The notes under the pieces were generated by a model, which saw nothing but the letters and a program-made list of their open reading frames with translations, was not told the DNA's origin and searched no databases. The position numbers and the translations under genes are program-made. A stretch of DNA of 64,000 bases from an uncultured Bacteroidales bacterium (GTDB lineage: Bacteria; Bacteroidota; Bacteroidia; Bacteroidales; Bacteroidaceae), in the NCBI GenBank assembly GCA_902781515.1, contig CACZJU010000005.1:28911-92910 (forward strand). The letters run 5' to 3'. Positions 27,409 to 34,645 of this stretch are shown here, piece by piece. Within the stretch, counting starts at the first letter, position 1, and every line of letters starts with the position of its first letter.

Positions 27409-28184
27409 GAGTATTGTCATTAACAAAGTTTGAAGAAGGCATGATTAACGAAGATGCCGCTATCGCTAAAGGAAACTTGGTAGCAGTATCGGATGGTGCT
27501 GGTGGTGGAGGTGTTTTCGCAGACAAATGGTCTAAGTATTTGGTAGAACACCTGCCTGATGAACCTATTGCAGATTATGAGTCGTTCGATAAATGGATTG
27601 AAGGTATTTGGGAGCCATTCTATAATGATTGTGAGAAAAAGGCAAAAATAGAAGGTGGCTTGTTTCTAAATAAGTTTTATGACGAGGGCTCGTTTGCTAC
27701 ACTGGTGGCAGTATGGAATACCGGCCAATGGATAAGTTATGGAGATAGTGTAGTTTTCTGCTATGACAGAGATAATGGTCGGTTGCAACATTCATTTGGC
27801 CCCTTGCTTGATTTCAACAATCCACCATATCTTATTAACTGCAAAGACCCACTTATTGAGGAGGGCTTTAATTCTGGTCAGTTTGACATTAGACCTGACA
27901 GCATTGTCTTTGCTGCCAGTGATGCTTTGTCTCATTATATATTAATGATGTTCAAGGTGGCACACAGGGAAGAGTTTGAAAGCGAATTGCAGGTCGCTAT
28001 CAATGCTCAAACAAAAAACAGCAATTTTATCAGAATATGTATGAGTCAGCGTAAGATAGACTTTGAGGATGTCATTAAGAAATTGGCCCTATGTAAAAAT
28101 GCAGGAAACTATATGAGACACCTCAAAGGCATAAGGACGAAGGGCTTGATTGGGCACGATGACTATACAATAGCAATTATGTGA
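27405..28184 (+). CDS. PP2C-family Ser/Thr protein phosphatase
   Basis: INEDAAI, VAVSDGAGGGG, GSFATLV, YGDSVVF and AASDALSHY follow the PP2C metal-binding motif order. ATGA overlap with the DarT-vWA stop at 27405-27408. Confidence 0.75.
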   Translation: MRVLSLTKFEEGMINEDAAIAKGNLVAVSDGAGGGGVFADKWSKYLVEHLPDEPIADYESFDKWIEGIWEPFYNDCEKKAKIEGGLFLNKFYDEGSFATLVAVWNTGQWISYGDSVVFCYDRDNGRLQHSFGPLLDFNNPPYLINCKDPLIEEGFNSGQFDIRPDSIVFAASDALSHYILMMFKVAHREEFESELQVAINAQTKNSNFIRICMSQRKIDFEDVIKKLALCKNAGNYMRHLKGIRTKGLIGHDDYTIAIM

Positions 28185-28188
28185 ACGT

Positions 28189-29436
28189 ATGGAAAAGAAG
28201 AATAGCGGATATACTCCAGACTACATAGATACCCTGCTGTCGAATCAGATATTTGTGTTTGGTAGCAACTCGTTGGGTTATCATACAGGTGGTGCCTCTA
28301 GTACTGCAAGAAAAAAGTTTGGTGCTGTTTGGGGACAGCCGGAAGGACTACAGGGACAAAGTTATGCTATTCCTGTAGATTATGGCAAAGGCGTTAGGAA
28401 AGATGCGGAAGTTAAGACGGCTATTGACAGGTTTATTGAGTTTGCAAAAGCACATCATGAGCTCTTTTTCTATGTAACTCGTGTAGGTTGTGGAATTGCT
28501 GGTTATCACGACGAGGAGATGGCACAGTTCTTCATGGAGGCATTGGAACTGAAGAATGTATGTCTGCCAAAGAGCTTCGTTGATGCACTCAACAATGGAA
28601 GAATTGAGTATGACCTGGAACGATTTGTTGAAGCGCAGAATATGGTATATGATATGGCACTTCATGAAATAAAGGAGGGTCAGAAACGGGGCCACTGGAT
28701 ATGGTTTGTTTTTCCGCAGATTAAAGGTTTAGGTCATAGCTATAACTCCGAATACTATGGAATAAGCGGGGTGAATGAGGCTAAATCCTACTTGGAGCAC
28801 CCTCTATTAGGAGCCAGACTCAGAAAAATATCTCAGGCAATGCTAGATTGTGGCAACCCATCTGCAGATGACATCCTCGGATTTCCAGACATATTGAAGG
28901 TCAGGTCGTGTATGACGCTGTTTGATATGATATCACCCAATGACATTTTTAGGCAGGTGTTGGATAAATACTATGGTGGCAAGCCCTGTGACAAAACCAT
29001 TTGGCGTTTAGGAACACGCGAGGAGAAATCGAAAAATGCTATAAAACTGAGCAAACTACGTATTGCCAAAGATAGTTCTATTATTCTTGCTGATTACCAG
29101 AAAGAGGTTAAGTTGGAGCCCATAGTCAAAGCTGTATATTTACTGTTCTTGAATCATCCAGAGGGAATCGCTTTCAAGTATCTTCCCGGCTACAGGAACG
29201 AACTGACTGATTTATATCAGAAGATAAAACCCTTAGGTTTGACTGAAAGAGCAATTAGAAGTATTGAGGATGTTACGAACCCACTTCTTAATTCTATCAA
29301 TGAGAAGTGTTCACGCATCAGAGCAGCTTTTTTGCCCGAGGTTAACTCCACTTTGTTGGAGCAATATATTATTACCGGCAAGAGTGGGGATCTCAAGAAG
29401 ATAGCCCTACCTCGAGATTTGGTAATCTGGGAATAA
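28189..29436 (+). CDS. Three-part fusion: A1S_2505-like phage-associated domain, then DUF1810, then an unknown C-terminal domain
   Basis: Residues 20-135: IFVFGSNSLGYHTGGASSTARKKFGAVWGQPEGLQGQSYAIPV...VTRVGCGIAGY. I recall this pattern from 'A1S_2505 family phage non-structural protein' (unverified). Residues ~140-270: RFVEAQNMVYDMALHEIKEGQKRGHWIWFVFPQIKGLGHS...LGARL...YGGKPCDKT, which is the DUF1810 signature. Residues 280-415 are unknown. Confidence 0.6.
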   Translation: MEKKNSGYTPDYIDTLLSNQIFVFGSNSLGYHTGGASSTARKKFGAVWGQPEGLQGQSYAIPVDYGKGVRKDAEVKTAIDRFIEFAKAHHELFFYVTRVGCGIAGYHDEEMAQFFMEALELKNVCLPKSFVDALNNGRIEYDLERFVEAQNMVYDMALHEIKEGQKRGHWIWFVFPQIKGLGHSYNSEYYGISGVNEAKSYLEHPLLGARLRKISQAMLDCGNPSADDILGFPDILKVRSCMTLFDMISPNDIFRQVLDKYYGGKPCDKTIWRLGTREEKSKNAIKLSKLRIAKDSSIILADYQKEVKLEPIVKAVYLLFLNHPEGIAFKYLPGYRNELTDLYQKIKPLGLTERAIRSIEDVTNPLLNSINEKCSRIRAAFLPEVNSTLLEQYIITGKSGDLKKIALPRDLVIWE

Positions 29437-29953: not shown

Positions 29954-30958
29954 ATGTCTGTATTTTATTCAAAAAAAATATTTATGAGGAAATATCATAA
30001 AAAACTAATCCCAAAGCATCAAAACTTTGTAAACCAGTACGTGCTTTCACGATATAATCCGAGAGGCATATACAGGAGAGCCTATTTCTGTGAGGATGAG
30101 GACATTGCTTTTGTCATACGTGTTGAGGATTACGAGGACAATCCCGATAGTTGGGGATGTGTTAATATGCAACATCAGTTACTTGTGCCTTTCCAATATG
30201 AGCGGATATTTGACTATGGCAGGTATCTCATTGCCACTAATTGGGAAGGAAGATTTCTATACAATAAGAAAGGGAAAATGCTCTATGAAATTGGTAGGGT
30301 TCTTAAGCCCCATCATCAAGCATACAGATTGATATTTGATCCTGAAAATGAAAACTTTAGAATTGCAATAAGGAAAATGGCAATTTCAAAGGAGCAATAT
30401 GAGATTTTTTATTCTATGCCCAATGGCCTTGTTTTCGCTAAGCGAAAGGAGGGAAAAGTTGGAGCCATCCTTTTTTCCAAGTTGAAACTACCATTTGAAT
30501 ATTATGCTATTGCTGTTCCTCAAAATGGTTATACATTGGGAGTGATTGAGGAAGGGCAAGCGGATGACGGAGAACCATTATTCAACTGTCAACTCATAAA
30601 AGTAAGAAGCCAAATAAAGAAAGAAGGCTCTATTCACCCTACAGGTATTTATATATTCACTTGCCTTAGAGAAGATGAGGTGAAGGATTTCTTTAGGAAT
30701 AAAGAACGAGTTGCCAATGAGTGCAACAAAATTGTTCGCAATAACGAACAAGTCCATTTCTCTGTAGAAGATTTAAAGTTATTTCCCTTTGATACAGACA
30801 ATTTGCCAAAAGAACCTGATTACGAAGAGGATGAAGAAACTGATGAGGATGAACGGGATGACAACATGAGTCTGTATGACTATCTTCATCAGTGGGATGA
30901 TTCTGCAAACATTGCTTATGAAGGATATAGCCGATTGTATTTAGGTTATGATGATTAG
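29954..30958 (+). CDS. WG-repeat-like protein with strongly acidic C-terminal tail
   Basis: WGCVNMQHQLLVPFQYERIFDY and GKVGAILFSKLKLPFEYYAI fit the WG-repeat pattern. The tail is PKEPDYEEDEETDEDERDDN...GYSRLYLGYDD. Confidence 0.5.
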   Translation: MSVFYSKKIFMRKYHKKLIPKHQNFVNQYVLSRYNPRGIYRRAYFCEDEDIAFVIRVEDYEDNPDSWGCVNMQHQLLVPFQYERIFDYGRYLIATNWEGRFLYNKKGKMLYEIGRVLKPHHQAYRLIFDPENENFRIAIRKMAISKEQYEIFYSMPNGLVFAKRKEGKVGAILFSKLKLPFEYYAIAVPQNGYTLGVIEEGQADDGEPLFNCQLIKVRSQIKKEGSIHPTGIYIFTCLREDEVKDFFRNKERVANECNKIVRNNEQVHFSVEDLKLFPFDTDNLPKEPDYEEDEETDEDERDDNMSLYDYLHQWDDSANIAYEGYSRLYLGYDD

Positions 30959-31062
30959 TAGTGAATAATGGAAATGGTAAAGTATGAATCCAACGCCCCG
31001 TTAGTGATATTATAAAGCTGAAATAATTATACACAAATTACAAACCTACAAAGTCTACTATA

Positions 31063-31713
31063 ATGATACAAATCGTTGATGGTTATACTTTAATAGAATG
31101 TTTGCTAAAAATAGCAGATGAAGAAGGAAAGATAATCGTGGATAAAACAACTTATCTGCCAGACATAAAGCATTACAAGAACGAATGTATATTAATTGAA
31201 AAATTATGTTCATTAATGAATGTCTATGGGATAAATCCTATCTTAGATAAAGACTTTATAGATGAACGACCTGAAAACTATTTTATATGTTTTATCAATA
31301 ATGAGTTTTCAGACCAACGAAAAGAATTAACACTAAAGCACTTAAATAAAATGTTTAGACTCGGAAAATCCGATTTGTCTGCAATGCTGTCGACAAGAAA
31401 GGCAAGATTTGAGAGCTTCTTATATTTGTTTAAGTATAGAAAGAAACTACAAGACTTAGAGTTTTCAAATTGTGACTTCAAGGAACTTGGGGATTCCCAT
31501 GCCAAATTGGTTTGCAAATCCCTAACAGACATACTATTTTGTAAGAAGATTGAGCCAGCCTGTGCTTTCCTTGAAAAAGCAATGCTCTTGTTGATGGGGG
31601 ATTATGTAGATAAGAAATATAAAGATATCGATTTAATTCGGGACTTTGGCTATCCTGGAATTATCCCCGAAAACATAAACAAAGAGCCGAATGATGATAC
31701 CCCACCATTTTAA
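31063..31713 (+). CDS. Hypothetical protein (216 aa)
   Basis: ORF with an ATG start in the same orientation as the island. No motif recognised. Confidence 0.4.
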   Translation: MIQIVDGYTLIECLLKIADEEGKIIVDKTTYLPDIKHYKNECILIEKLCSLMNVYGINPILDKDFIDERPENYFICFINNEFSDQRKELTLKHLNKMFRLGKSDLSAMLSTRKARFESFLYLFKYRKKLQDLEFSNCDFKELGDSHAKLVCKSLTDILFCKKIEPACAFLEKAMLLLMGDYVDKKYKDIDLIRDFGYPGIIPENINKEPNDDTPPF

Positions 31714-31727
31714 TAAACAAATATAAT

Positions 31728-32891
31728 ATGTCTCGAAGACTGAAGAAACCGTATAGAAGGCTGCTGAAGACGATTGCTGTAGTTGCCGTAATTGTGTTGC
31801 TGAAATGGCTATGGCTAGCTGTTTCCACAATGGGGCACGGCTCGTTTGAAGGGGAGAAAACGGAGATATTGCGACGCCGCAATTATCTTACAGAACGTTT
31901 AGTGACTTCACAACAGGAAGTTTTTGAGGAGATGCCAAAAGGTCTGGAATCGCAGTTCCAAGGGGAGTGGGCAATGTATTCATGCTCTATGCTAACGGCA
32001 GCGCTGGTGAATATCGCAAAGCTTTATCCTGAAGAACGAGAAAAGTCTATGGGGCAGATAGATAGGCTTATTGAAATCGTATTGACGGAACAGATGAGGC
32101 AATATGATACTGCACGCTGGGGTGAAGACCCGTTGGATAGTTGGGAAAGCGAGAAAAGTCATATGTCGTATCTAAGTATCTTAGCTTGGATGATTAGCGG
32201 ATACAAAGCTGTGGGCGGAGGGGACAAATACGATGATTGGTATTTTCGACTATGCAGCACATTGAACTGGCGCATGAAGAAGAGTCCAACACTGAACCTC
32301 CAGACCTATCCTGACGAGGCTGTTTATGTACCAGATATGCTTGTTGCGATTGTAGCTTTGTCGAACTTTACACGCCAATGCGACGATAGATACCAAAGCA
32401 CTATAAACGAATGGCTGCATAAGGCAAAAACGGAATGGACAGATAAGGAAACGGGACTGCTGAAATCCTTCCTAAGCTACGATGGTACAGAACTGTCGGA
32501 ACCCATAAAGGGCTCTTATTCTGCACTTAACTGTTATTATCTTACCTTTGTAGATACAACCTTTGCCAAAGAACAATACGGACTGATGAAAAAATATTTC
32601 AAGAAGGCACGTCCTGTAACAGGAATCCGAGAGTATTACGACCGCTCATGTTGGATAGGATTGGATGCTGACGCTGGGCCCATAATTTTTAACCTGAGTC
32701 CATCAGGTACAGCCTTTGCTATAGGCCCTGCAACCTATTTCAATGATTCGGAATTCCGCAAACAATTATTGAGAACTGCTGAAATCGCAGGCTCAACTTT
32801 CCGTGGGTGGAACACCAATCACTATCTGCTTGCTAATGTGGCATTAGTGGGCGAGGCTGTGGCTCTCGCCATGCGAACACATACAAAATGA
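31728..32891 (+). CDS. Membrane-anchored hypothetical protein (387 aa)
   Basis: The N-terminal TM is TIAVVAVIVLLKWLWLAV, and the rest is helical-looking. G+C is noticeably higher than in the upstream island genes. Confidence 0.45.
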   Translation: MSRRLKKPYRRLLKTIAVVAVIVLLKWLWLAVSTMGHGSFEGEKTEILRRRNYLTERLVTSQQEVFEEMPKGLESQFQGEWAMYSCSMLTAALVNIAKLYPEEREKSMGQIDRLIEIVLTEQMRQYDTARWGEDPLDSWESEKSHMSYLSILAWMISGYKAVGGGDKYDDWYFRLCSTLNWRMKKSPTLNLQTYPDEAVYVPDMLVAIVALSNFTRQCDDRYQSTINEWLHKAKTEWTDKETGLLKSFLSYDGTELSEPIKGSYSALNCYYLTFVDTTFAKEQYGLMKKYFKKARPVTGIREYYDRSCWIGLDADAGPIIFNLSPSGTAFAIGPATYFNDSEFRKQLLRTAEIAGSTFRGWNTNHYLLANVALVGEAVALAMRTHTK

Positions 32892-32906: not shown

Positions 32907-33731
32907 ATGGATAATAGTATTCTCATAGGTGCTATCGCAGGAGATGTAATAGGTTCTGTTTATGAGTTTTGCCCATGTCGGAGTACTGACTTTAAGTTGT
33001 TCTATTCGGATTCCAGGTTTACGGACGATACAGTAATGACTGTTGCTATAGCAGATTGGCTTCTGACGGGCAACGACTTGGTGAAGACTATGCAGAAGTG
33101 GGGACGGAAATATCCGTTTGCCGGATATGGTCAGCGTTTCATGTTTTGGCTGGCTGATCCAAATCCACAGCCATACGACAGTTGGGGTAATGGGAGTGCA
33201 ATGCGTGTAAGTCCTGTCGGATGGGCTTTTGAAACACTTGATGAAACTCTTGAGTTTGCAAAGCGAAGTGCCGATGTATCCCATAATCATCCTGAAGGGA
33301 TTAAAGGAGCTCAGGCTACAGCTGCATGTATATTCATGGCACGAACAGGGAAGAAGAAGGCTGAGATTAAGGATTATGTTGAACAAACATTTGGTTATGA
33401 CCTTAGCCGGAAATGTGATGACATTCGTCCTGAATATCGCCATACAGAAAGTTGTCAGGGAAGTGTTCCTGAATCTATTATTGCTTTTCTTGAAAGCAGC
33501 GATTATGAGAGCACCATCCGACTTGCCGTTTCTCTGGGTGGCGATGCAGATACGATGGCGGCCATAGCAGGCAGCATTGCAGAGGCGTATTATGATGGTG
33601 TGCCTAACCATATCAAGGAGGAGGTGATTAAAAGATTACCACAGGAGATGGTAGATACGATGAGCTACTTTTACTTTATATATTTACATCACACTTCCAG
33701 AGCCAACACAAAGAACAATCCGTCATCTTGA
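32907..33731 (+). CDS. ADP-ribosylglycohydrolase (ARH/DraG family)
   Basis: IAGDVIGSVYEF, RFTDDTVMT, WGNGSAMRVSP and LGGDADTMAAIAGSIAEAYY are signature blocks of the PF03747-type fold, including the metal-binding D/T residues. Confidence 0.85.
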   Translation: MDNSILIGAIAGDVIGSVYEFCPCRSTDFKLFYSDSRFTDDTVMTVAIADWLLTGNDLVKTMQKWGRKYPFAGYGQRFMFWLADPNPQPYDSWGNGSAMRVSPVGWAFETLDETLEFAKRSADVSHNHPEGIKGAQATAACIFMARTGKKKAEIKDYVEQTFGYDLSRKCDDIRPEYRHTESCQGSVPESIIAFLESSDYESTIRLAVSLGGDADTMAAIAGSIAEAYYDGVPNHIKEEVIKRLPQEMVDTMSYFYFIYLHHTSRANTKNNPSS

Positions 33732-33868: not shown

Positions 33869-34645
33869 ATGGCAATAGGAAAATGGATAGGGGGATTCCT
33901 GGGACTGCTTAGCGGCGGTCCGCTGGGAATGTTGGCTGGCATTGTGCTGGGTGCAGTGGCTGATTCGGTGTTCGACCAAGACAATTACTTCAAGCCCGGC
34001 GAAGGCATGGGAAATGCGGCTTACCAGCAGCAGGGGGCACGCAATGGGTTCCTGTTCTCGCTGATGGTGCTGGCTGCGCACATCATACATGCCGACCGTC
34101 GTGTGATGCACAGCGAGATGGAGTATGTACGGCGTTTCCTGCGCACGAATTTCTCGCAGGATGCGGAGCGCGAGGGCGAAGAGATTCTGCTGCGCCTGTT
34201 TGAAGAGAAGAAGCGCATGGGCGACAGCGAATGGGTGCAACAGATTGTGGCAGTGTGTCAGCAGTTGGCTTACGCTATGCCTATGGAGCAGCGCCTGCAA
34301 CTGATAGCAATGCTGTGCGAGATAGCAAAGGCGGATGGCACGATTCAGCAGGAGGAGCGTGAGGCTCTGCGGCAGGTGTGTGTGAATATGGGGCTCGACG
34401 GAGGTACTGCAGAGCAGATGTTGGGACTTGGTGGTGAGACGCTTGACGAAGCTTACCGTGTGCTGGGCCTTTCGCCCGATGCCACTGACGATGATGTGCG
34501 TCAGGCCTATAAACGTATGGCTCGCGAGAATCATCCCGACCGTGTGGCTTCGCTTGGTGAGGATATCCGTCGCTCGGCAGAACGCAAGTTCCAAGAGATT
34601 GCCGATGCCAAGGACCGCATCTACCGTGCCCGCAACATGAAATAA
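33869..34645 (+). CDS. djlA: DjlA-like co-chaperone (N-terminal TM, TerB-like domain, C-terminal J domain)
   Basis: TM is WIGGFLGLLSGGPLGMLAGIVLGAV. The tellurite-resistance TerB-like middle contains LIAMLCEIAKADGTIQQEERE. The J domain is AYRVLGLSPDATDDDVRQAYKRMARENHPDR, with the HPD motif. Confidence 0.8.
   Translation: MAIGKWIGGFLGLLSGGPLGMLAGIVLGAVADSVFDQDNYFKPGEGMGNAAYQQQGARNGFLFSLMVLAAHIIHADRRVMHSEMEYVRRFLRTNFSQDAEREGEEILLRLFEEKKRMGDSEWVQQIVAVCQQLAYAMPMEQRLQLIAMLCEIAKADGTIQQEEREALRQVCVNMGLDGGTAEQMLGLGGETLDEAYRVLGLSPDATDDDVRQAYKRMARENHPDRVASLGEDIRRSAERKFQEIADAKDRIYRARNMK

Follow-up and report, generated by a model that had tools for sequence, protein, structure and literature searches.

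The window analyzed in this study comprises 64,000 nucleotides of an uncultured Bacteroidales bacterium (GenBank assembly GCA_902781515.1, contig CACZJU010000005.1, positions 28,911 to 92,910 of the forward strand), and the subject of our study is a gene at 28189..29436 on the forward strand that encodes a protein of three domains. The gene is an ATG-started open reading frame (ORF) of 415 amino acids plus stop, and its ATG at 28189 starts 4 nt past the stop of a PP2C-like phosphatase gene (TGA at 28182-28184, followed by ACGT), exactly as the initial annotation of this DNA had placed it. It is contained in a low-GC island of approximately 19-33 kb, in which the GC content is 0.33-0.44 compared with about 0.50 in the flanks, and it follows a set of genes that includes DarT, a DNA ADP-ribosyltransferase. 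In this study, domain identities, model-based folds, fusion partners and operon co-occurrence were computed, and we tentatively read the three-domain protein as an accessory eraser of ADP-ribose, tethered to DNA, by which the damage from DarT would be limited or reset.

The genes upstream of the three-domain gene lie on the same strand. A Ser/Thr kinase with WG repeats and transmembrane segments (22098..25286; PADLOC STK_OB, E 5.7e-53; Pfam Pkinase and WG_beta_rep) is followed by a DUF6939 gene (25292..25951; Pfam, E 1.2e-74), which stands directly upstream of a gene for a DarT domain (residues 26-201; Pfam DarT, E 5.7e-36) fused to a TerY-type vWA domain (residues 198-478; PADLOC TerY, E 8e-53) at 25954..27408, and by the PP2C-like phosphatase (27405..28184; PADLOC PP2C, E 2.7e-7). 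The DarT and PP2C neighbors are those that the initial annotation had described; what it had missed is the TerY-P triad with DarT on the vWA protein, and the fact that DUF6939, not the three-domain gene, is the constant neighbor of DarT. According to the PADLOC models, the TerY-P trio of STK_OB, TerY and PP2C is encoded together in the window, and the trio is found again in another locus of our collection (L003). On the basis of these profile matches, we consider the core of the operon to be a TerY-P triad in which DarT is joined to the vWA subunit. Across the bacterial family, at least 15 loci have this fusion of DarT to a TerY-type vWA domain. TerY-P itself is cited in PMC11090510 as a validated defense system (Gao et al., 2020).

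The best PDB relative of the DarT domain by sequence is the DarT1 of E. coli C7 (8baq, E 5e-6). The Glu of the sequence QAEVLV in the present DarT aligns with the catalytic position of 8baq, and to judge from its sequence this DarT looks active. In PMC11543638, DarT1 is described as the guanine-specific class of the toxin, which is partnered by NADAR.

In the three-domain protein, NCBIfam NF049995 (A1S_2505_Nterm) matches residues 21-130 over the whole length of the profile (positions 1-109 of 109; 127.7 bits, cut-off 45; E 2.1e-37), PHROG phrog_2072 matches residues 18-136 (E 4.3e-34), and Pfam PF08837 (DUF1810) matches residues 141-272 (E 3.4e-53; 179.6 bits, cut-off 25). The NCBIfam and Pfam matches are well above the curated cut-offs, and the A1S_2505-like N-terminal domain and the central DUF1810 of the initial annotation are thereby borne out. 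The last ~135 amino acids, which it had left unassigned, do lack a match in Pfam, NCBIfam, PHROG and PADLOC, with none in Pfam even at E<=10, but it had overlooked their predicted OmpR/PhoB-type winged-helix fold. This fold emerged from an AlphaFold2 model, which was built from an alignment of 45 rows that combined full-length relatives with single-domain ones and has a mean predicted local distance difference test score (pLDDT) of 88.8, with values of about 87-97 across most of residues 11-130. The prediction of domain boundaries that had been suggested as a check resolves three domains, which are well defined, whereas their relative orientation is not (predicted template modeling score 0.50). 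Accordingly, the protein can be divided into the A1S_2505-type domain (residues 2-138; 28192..28602), an all-helical DUF1810 (residues 139-277; 28603..29019), a flexible linker (residues 278-288; 29020..29052) with pLDDT <50 at residues 277-284, and a C-terminal module that belongs to no curated family (residues 289-415; 29053..29433).

In the predicted model, the A1S_2505 part has a macrodomain fold, in which the layers are stacked as alpha/beta/alpha. With VIA-align, residues 2-138 match the macrodomains of VEEV (3gqo; Z 10.8, root-mean-square deviation 3.0, 132 residues aligned), of CHIKV nsP3 (Z 10.7) and of human TARG1 (2l8r; Z 10.3), and also the DarG macrodomains of M. tuberculosis and T. 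aquaticus (5m3i, Z 9.7; 5m3e and 5m31, Z 9.6). An unbiased structure search, independent of Foldseek, covered 48,161 chains; among the 50 matches listed, 37 fell on residues 1-141 and were nearly all macro or macro-like. Foldseek returned many macrodomains for residues 2-138 at probabilities of 0.9-0.99, with weak E-values (0.05-0.6). A fold search for macro, SLOG or Rossmann-like similarity had been proposed in the initial annotation; the macro similarity was found, and a SLOG/Rossmann identity of the N-terminal domain was rejected, given that macrodomains dominate and that no SLOG, LOG or TIR domain occurs among the matches listed.

The conservation of residues was counted in phmmer-aligned relatives taken from a representative search at 50% identity, with 36-39 homologues for the macrodomain and ~96 for DUF1810. 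In the macrodomain, F22-V-F-G-S-N27, G30, H32, G34-G35-A36, Y59-A-I-P62 and G100-C101-G102-x-A104-G105 are kept at 92-100% (N27 94%, H32 100%, G34 and G35 97%, G100 100%, C101 97%, G102 94%, G105 92%). We take N27-x6-G34-G35 and G100-C-G102-x-A-G105 to resemble the glycine-rich loops (N-x6-GG and G-x-x-G) by which macrodomains contact the phosphates of ADP-ribose, and the ADP-ribose site looks intact.

The DUF1810 part matches Rv1873 (PDB 2jek) both by sequence (E 1.9e-31, 44% identity over 139 residues) and by structure (Z 25.5, root-mean-square deviation 1.4, 139 residues aligned). In the ~96 homologues, the polar and aromatic residues H169, W170, W172, P176, Q177, S184, Y190, E197, D234, K237 and T243 are kept, and such a dense conserved set would be typical of a ligand pocket or an active site. 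In one three-domain relative (P0127, 419 amino acids, 44-48% identity), the macrodomain and the C-terminal module are retained, but the half of DUF1810 with the conserved HWxWxxFPQ is lost; judged by this protein, DUF1810 may be dispensable in some lineages.

The C-terminal module of the model is an OmpR/PhoB-type winged helix, with a beta-sheet at its N-terminus, a core of three helices and a C-terminal hairpin as the wing. Its VIA match to BaeR (4b09) has Z 9.3 and a root-mean-square deviation of 2.6 over 98 aligned residues, and in the search of 48,161 chains OmpR/PhoB DNA-binding domains account for 12 of the 50 matches listed, all aligned to residues 287-415. Besides BaeR, these include a Thermotoga homologue (1kgs), CpxR, GlnR, AdeR, CadC, PrrA, RitR, ToxR, PmrA and VanR, and no other fold class was matched by residues 287-415 among those listed. 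The module is basic, with an isoelectric point of 9.2 vs 6.4 for the other two domains, and the predicted fold makes DNA binding likely. Its helix N368-S-I-N-E-K-C-x-R-I-R-x-x-F381 is kept at ~97-100%. Residues 280-415 otherwise fell into unnamed clusters of the Protein Atlas; the nearest named clusters, Cas_NE0113 and MvaI_BcnI, scored <0.9, and kinship with either was dismissed as chance.

We compared 12 loci with a three-domain orthologue, namely the window, four loci from species-representative genomes and seven from a sample of 401 genomes of the family. In 11 of the 12, the orthologue (57-90% identity) follows DarT and DUF6939, all three being encoded on one strand. Nine loci (the window, L002, L003, L048-L052 and the truncated contig G500) share the order DUF6939, DarT-TerY, PP2C and three-domain gene, with a kinase upstream. 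The other two (L001:2010-9242 and L004:452-7659) have a second type of operon, which consists of an X-DarT, DUF6939, a 521-aa coiled-coil protein, a ZorB/MotB-like protein (237 aa; PADLOC, E 3e-11), a 575-aa protein and the three-domain protein. In this second type, DarT may be coupled to a motor of the Zorya kind; in L001, the operon is immediately preceded by a Nudix gene. DarT operons of two types have therefore acquired the three-domain gene at their 3′ end, and this recruitment points to DarT as its functional partner.

DUF6939 is adjacent to DarT in all 24 loci with a tblastn DarT homologue. Because it stands next to DarT wherever DarT was detected, we consider DUF6939 the probable cognate and primary antidote of DarT. 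A kinship with NADAR is a weak lead. The profile PF22397 (NADAR-DarT1) matches two DUF6939 orthologues only, and below threshold (22 bits, cut-off 27; E 1.3e-4), and one Protein Atlas cluster for DUF6939 carries PF22397 on 14% of its members; neither a PDB profile search nor an hhalign comparison with the gp30.3-like protein of the L054 locus gave a match. An AlphaFold2 model of DUF6939 from a 12-sequence alignment has a pLDDT of 52.5 and is unusable for a fold search. The protein has a Lys-rich C-terminal tail that ends in a conserved NNxQLxLF, and in one locus (L068:4154-6232) DarT and DUF6939 form a bare two-gene pair that resembles a toxin-antitoxin module.

The representative search returned 11,889 proteins at E<=1e-3, most of which match just one of the three parts, and fusion partners were identified by Pfam scans of 77 diverse multi-domain relatives. 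Each of the three parts is a mobile module. DUF1810 is fused to ADP-ribosylglycohydrolase (ARH) in three proteins (P0155, P0185, P0251), to microbial PARG in two (P0212, P0231) and to 2H/LigT phosphoesterase in two (P0219, P0227), and single fusions join it to HD (P0163), the nucleotidase NT5C (P0210), a methyltransferase and LRR_5 (P0192). Four further proteins (P0144, P0149, P0191, P0240) carry tandem copies of DUF1810. The A1S_2505 module is fused to PARG (P0182), ARH (P0246 and P0250, of which one contains a PTP phosphatase as well), HD (P0267) and LRR_5 (P0134). The role in processing or sensing ADP-ribose that the initial annotation had suggested is supported by the predicted macro fold, by the ARH, PARG and HD fusions and by DarT in 11 of the 12 loci.

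Furthermore, the macro part occurs alone in 399 of 50,697 phage records, many of which are Pseudomonas, Escherichia and Klebsiella phages of ~70-77 kb, and it is occasionally annotated there as an ADP-ribosylglycohydrolase; DUF1810 occurs in one of the 50,697 records. By analogy, the stand-alone phage protein would fit an eraser that serves in counter-defense. The NADAR protein AdfN/gp30.3 is described as such a counter-defense eraser in phages, with DNA ADP-ribosylglycohydrolase activity (10.1101/2024.07.11.602962).

We tentatively favor the DNA-tethered eraser because of the macrodomain fold, the glycine-rich loops, the fusions with ADP-ribose enzymes, the DarT context, a DarT that looks active, the basic winged helix and the macro part of phages. 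That the protein binds and hydrolyzes ADP-ribose and binds DNA is what we infer, and so are its substrate and the way in which it shares the work with DUF6939. In this reading, the effector of the operon would be DarT, a DNA ADP-ribosyltransferase fused to the vWA protein of TerY-P. The macrodomain would bind the ADP-ribose that DarT places on DNA and would probably hydrolyze it, although auto-modified proteins may be its substrate instead. The OmpR/PhoB-like winged helix would keep the enzyme on DNA, and DUF1810 may bind the ADP-ribose moiety or its product or process it further. Self-damage would thus be limited, or the system would be reset once the switch formed by kinase and phosphatase has fired. 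The three-domain protein would supplement DUF6939 in this task and may cover another adduct or protect self DNA.

Several observations weigh against the DNA-tethered eraser. The N-terminal and C-terminal parts do not match Pfam Macro or Trans_reg_C even at E<=10, either as isolated parts or in three stand-alone homologues. The best matches of the N-domain profile in the PDB, 2afc and 2fg1, are non-significant (E 0.16-0.17), and the C-domain profile has no PDB match at E<=10. Because sequence profiles do not assign these two parts, the macro and winged-helix calls rest on the predicted model. In addition, what we take to be the position of the MacroD-motif aspartate is A or S in the family of the three-domain protein, and there is no conserved lysine after the YAIP strand, where TARG1 and DarG presumably carry their catalytic lysine; catalysis is less certain because the aspartate is replaced and a lysine of the TARG1/DarG type was not seen. 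Domains of the OmpR/PhoB type are normally sequence-specific transcription factors, which favors a regulator. The remaining points concern the context. The orthologue of one locus (L053, 56% identity) has no DarT nearby and is located near a polyvalent-type kinase, DUF6717 and a transglutaminase. Of the 401 genomes of the family, 23 contain DUF6939 and eight contain the three-domain protein. Fourteen further DUF6939 loci were fetched; TerY-type cassettes of at least five of them (L060, L061, L062, L063 and L072) are without the three-domain gene, and three (L065, L069 and L071) end too early for its presence to be judged. Because DarT/DUF6939 cassettes also occur without it, the three-domain protein is an optional accessory part and not the core antidote. 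In one locus (L059), unrelated genes take its place, followed by a 370-aa protein that has the C-terminal module only, three genes after PP2C, and in L062 a stand-alone A1S_2505 gene is found two genes upstream of DUF6939.

According to the first alternative, which we regard as possible though rather unlikely, the protein is a transcription regulator that senses ADP-ribose: the macrodomain, DUF1810 or both would bind ADP-ribose or a related breakdown product of NAD, and the winged helix would bind an operator and tune the DarT operon or genes for recovery. Such a protein would resemble NrtR and the optional winged helix-turn-helix (wHTH) regulators of many defense islands, and the position of the three-domain gene, optional and at the end of the operon, is one that accessory regulators often have. 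Residues 287-415 match only the DNA-binding domains of OmpR/PhoB transcription factors among the matches listed, and the tandem repeats of DUF1810 are more typical of binding modules. Paralogues with the macro and DUF1810 domains but without the winged helix directly follow an NrtR-like Nudix-wHTH gene in two loci (L054 and L055), where a regulator function would be supplied in trans. However, the C-terminal module is 45-65% identical, with the near-invariant helix N368-F381, across unrelated N-termini that include membrane-anchored ones, and this is hard to square with operators specific to a locus. The A1S_2505 and DUF1810 domains are mostly fused to enzymes and not to DNA-binding domains, and N27, H32 and C101, polar residues that hardly vary, suggest that chemistry takes place besides binding. 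No conserved DNA element was found upstream of the small 85-aa gene when the window, L002 and L051 were aligned, a single comparison to which we give no weight as counter-evidence.

The C-terminal module is also the last part of many Bacteroidota proteins that have nothing else in common, and N-terminal membrane segments or DUF6804 occur in some of these. One such family without a curated profile (P0141, P0145, P0146, P0150, P0160, P0199 and L059:4817-5926) carries the same module at 45-65% identity together with a conserved middle region, often behind N-terminal membrane helices or DUF6804, and its members may be membrane-tethered DNA-binding proteins.

A second alternative, which we hold to be improbable, is that the protein processes soluble derivatives of ADP-ribose (e.g., ADP-ribose-phosphate species or O-acyl-ADP-ribose) and that its C-terminal module is an adaptor for protein-protein contacts or for localization. 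The fusions of DUF1810 to 2H/LigT, HD, NT5C and a methyltransferase are typical of small-molecule nucleotide processing, and phage Macro, NADAR and SLOG domains have been argued to target mainly low-molecular-weight derivatives of ADP-ribose (Iyer et al., 2022, PMC9503650). The two-domain form of L054 is also found in an island with Nudix, phosphatases of the PTP-NADK type and of the low-molecular-weight (LMW) type, and a gp30.3-like NADAR gene. Against this stands the co-occurrence of the three-domain gene with DarT, which is a DNA-modifying ADP-ribosyltransferase (ART) and not a TIR, SIR2 or RES NADase, and the C-terminal fold is of the DNA-binding type and basic. The regions L054:8859-13554 and L055:11065-13543 form an NAD/ADP-ribose island with the NrtR-like Nudix-wHTH gene, the macro-DUF1810 gene, Phage_30_3 and phosphatases. 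In L054, the gene after the two-domain paralogue encodes Phage_30_3 (gp30.3/AdfN-like) fused to UPF0227, and genes for PTP-NADK-type and LMW phosphotyrosine phosphatases come next; in L056, an ARH gene directly follows the two-domain paralogue.

The weakest alternative, a DarG-like dual antitoxin that erases the product of DarT and binds DarT itself via DUF1810 or the C-terminal module, is suggested by an N-terminal macrodomain placed as in DarG, by the operon shared with DarT in 11 of the 12 loci and by the DarG macrodomains among the structural matches (Z 9.6-9.7), but we consider it very improbable given that DarT/DUF6939 cassettes are viable without the three-domain gene, that DUF1810 and the C-terminal module are widespread without DarT and that the protein has no PADLOC match of any kind.

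An ARH gene lies at the 3′ end of the low-GC island (32907..33731, forward strand; Pfam, E 1.9e-35), and by tblastn an ARH homologue is near the three-domain gene in five of the 11 target-bearing loci (the window, L001, L004 in partial form, L048 and L052); it is possibly a third class of eraser in the same island. Between the three-domain gene and ARH are three genes on the forward strand (29954-32891) for proteins of 334 aa (with a weak WG-repeat match), 216 aa and 387 aa, which have nothing above threshold in Pfam, NCBIfam, PHROG or PADLOC. The statement of the initial annotation that the three-domain gene closes the operon was roughly right, but ORFs on the same strand run on past it to 33731, and a simple terminator scan, which was at chance level (9 found vs 9.3 expected), placed no terminator after 29436. 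A scan for sigma-70 promoters was also at chance level (65 found vs 56 expected) and is unsuited to the promoters of this organism. Directly after the island, where the GC content is back at the level of the genome, a TerB-DnaJ fusion protein is encoded at 33869-34645 on the forward strand (Pfam TerB, E 2.5e-17; DnaJ, E 7e-12). Upstream of the kinase of the triad, and separated from it by small ORFs, another Ser/Thr kinase with a WG repeat is encoded (18755-21010, forward strand). The repeats of the triad kinases vary by locus among WG, LRR_5 and Sel1 (window 18755-21010 and 22098-25286; L062:4922-8269; L063:10759-12180; L003:2230-3636). This variation, with LRR_5 also fused to A1S_2505 and to DUF1810, suggests a shuffling of sensor or adaptor modules among the proteins of such islands.

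The reversible ADP-ribosylation of DNA, in which DarT is paired with DarG or NADAR, has recently become established as one layer of growth control and of defense against phages, and we know of no characterized eraser other than the macrodomain, NADAR and ARH. In the way it would work, the three-domain protein is most like DarG and other macrodomain erasers, yet it is not a DarG. Like the antitoxin of DarTG2, it shares its operon with a DarT ADP-ribosyltransferase and has an N-terminal macrodomain, which matches that of DarG structurally. However, the identity is only 11-13%, no DarG match was found in PADLOC, NCBIfam or Pfam, and where DarG has its DarT-binding domain, this protein has DUF1810 and a winged helix. 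Its glycine-loop motif (N-x6-GG) looks, by our assumption, more like that of MacroD and viral macrodomains than like that of TARG1 and DarG. In addition, the protein is optional for its cassette, and the present DarT is closest by sequence to DarT1 and not to DarT2. Single-domain, macro-like Bacteroides proteins, BT1257/Q8A8B0 (2fg1, 2afc), share the RIGCGxAG loop with the N-terminal domain and match it structurally (Z 8.4-8.7), whereas their sequence match is non-significant.

The pairing of a DNA ADP-ribosylating toxin with an adjacent enzymatic eraser is a logic shared with DarT1-NADAR (DarTG1) and with phage AdfN/gp30.3, as these are described in PMC11543638 and 10.1101/2024.07.11.602962. 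The three-domain protein differs from these in that it is not a NADAR and would be a second eraser, of the macrodomain type, in the same operon, and the present DarT differs in being fused to vWA and placed under a kinase/phosphatase pair. All three PADLOC models of the TerY-P triad match the present neighbors, but here the TerY protein carries an N-terminal DarT, and DUF6939 and the three-domain protein are added. The concept of NrtR, an ADP-ribose-responsive regulator of NAD metabolism in which a domain that recognizes ADP-ribose is joined to a winged helix, is also similar; there the ligand domain is Nudix instead of macro/DUF1810, and the winged helix is NrtR_WHD instead of OmpR/PhoB-like. 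Rv1873 (2jek) is a structural-genomics orphan that stands alone with 145 aa, whereas in the present protein a macrodomain precedes DUF1810 and a winged helix follows it.

In the literature searched, outside of which lay subscription journals, no functional description was found of DUF1810 (which is mentioned incidentally), of A1S_2505 (which appears as a locus tag only) or, to judge by titles and abstracts, of Rv1873, in agreement with the initial annotation, which had given neither recognizable domain a defined role; nothing was found on DUF6939 or on DarT, TerY and PP2C together. The protein is a genuine member of the A1S_2505 and DUF1810 families; what we consider new here is that a probable macrodomain eraser carries accessory domains not seen with it before and belongs to a hybrid of DarT and TerY-P. 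Our analysis ties the uncharacterized A1S_2505 clade of macrodomains and the orphan DUF1810/Rv1873, whose crystal structure dates from 2007, to the chemistry of DNA ADP-ribosylation as testable hypotheses, and it adds a probable DNA-binding domain to the pair.

A bolder reading, which we put forward as an unlikely one, takes DUF1810 for an unrecognized domain that recognizes or processes ADP-ribose and is the standing partner of macro, ARH and PARG erasers. The protein with macro, DUF1810 and winged-helix domains would then be a DNA-bound feedback element that reads the marks left by DarT on DNA, or ADP-ribose released from them, and erases the marks, sets the firing threshold or the recovery of a kinase-gated abortive infection by DarT, or does both. 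If this reading were true, it would give a function to the orphan structure of 2007, Rv1873, and define a hybrid DarT/TerY-P defense system. The best 120 database matches to the three-domain protein and to DUF6939 are 79-99% identical and nearly all metagenomic. The hybrid system is common in gut Prevotellaceae metagenomes, where close homologues number thousands, and it could reveal the way in which phosphorylation, and not an antitoxin alone, gates a toxic ART.

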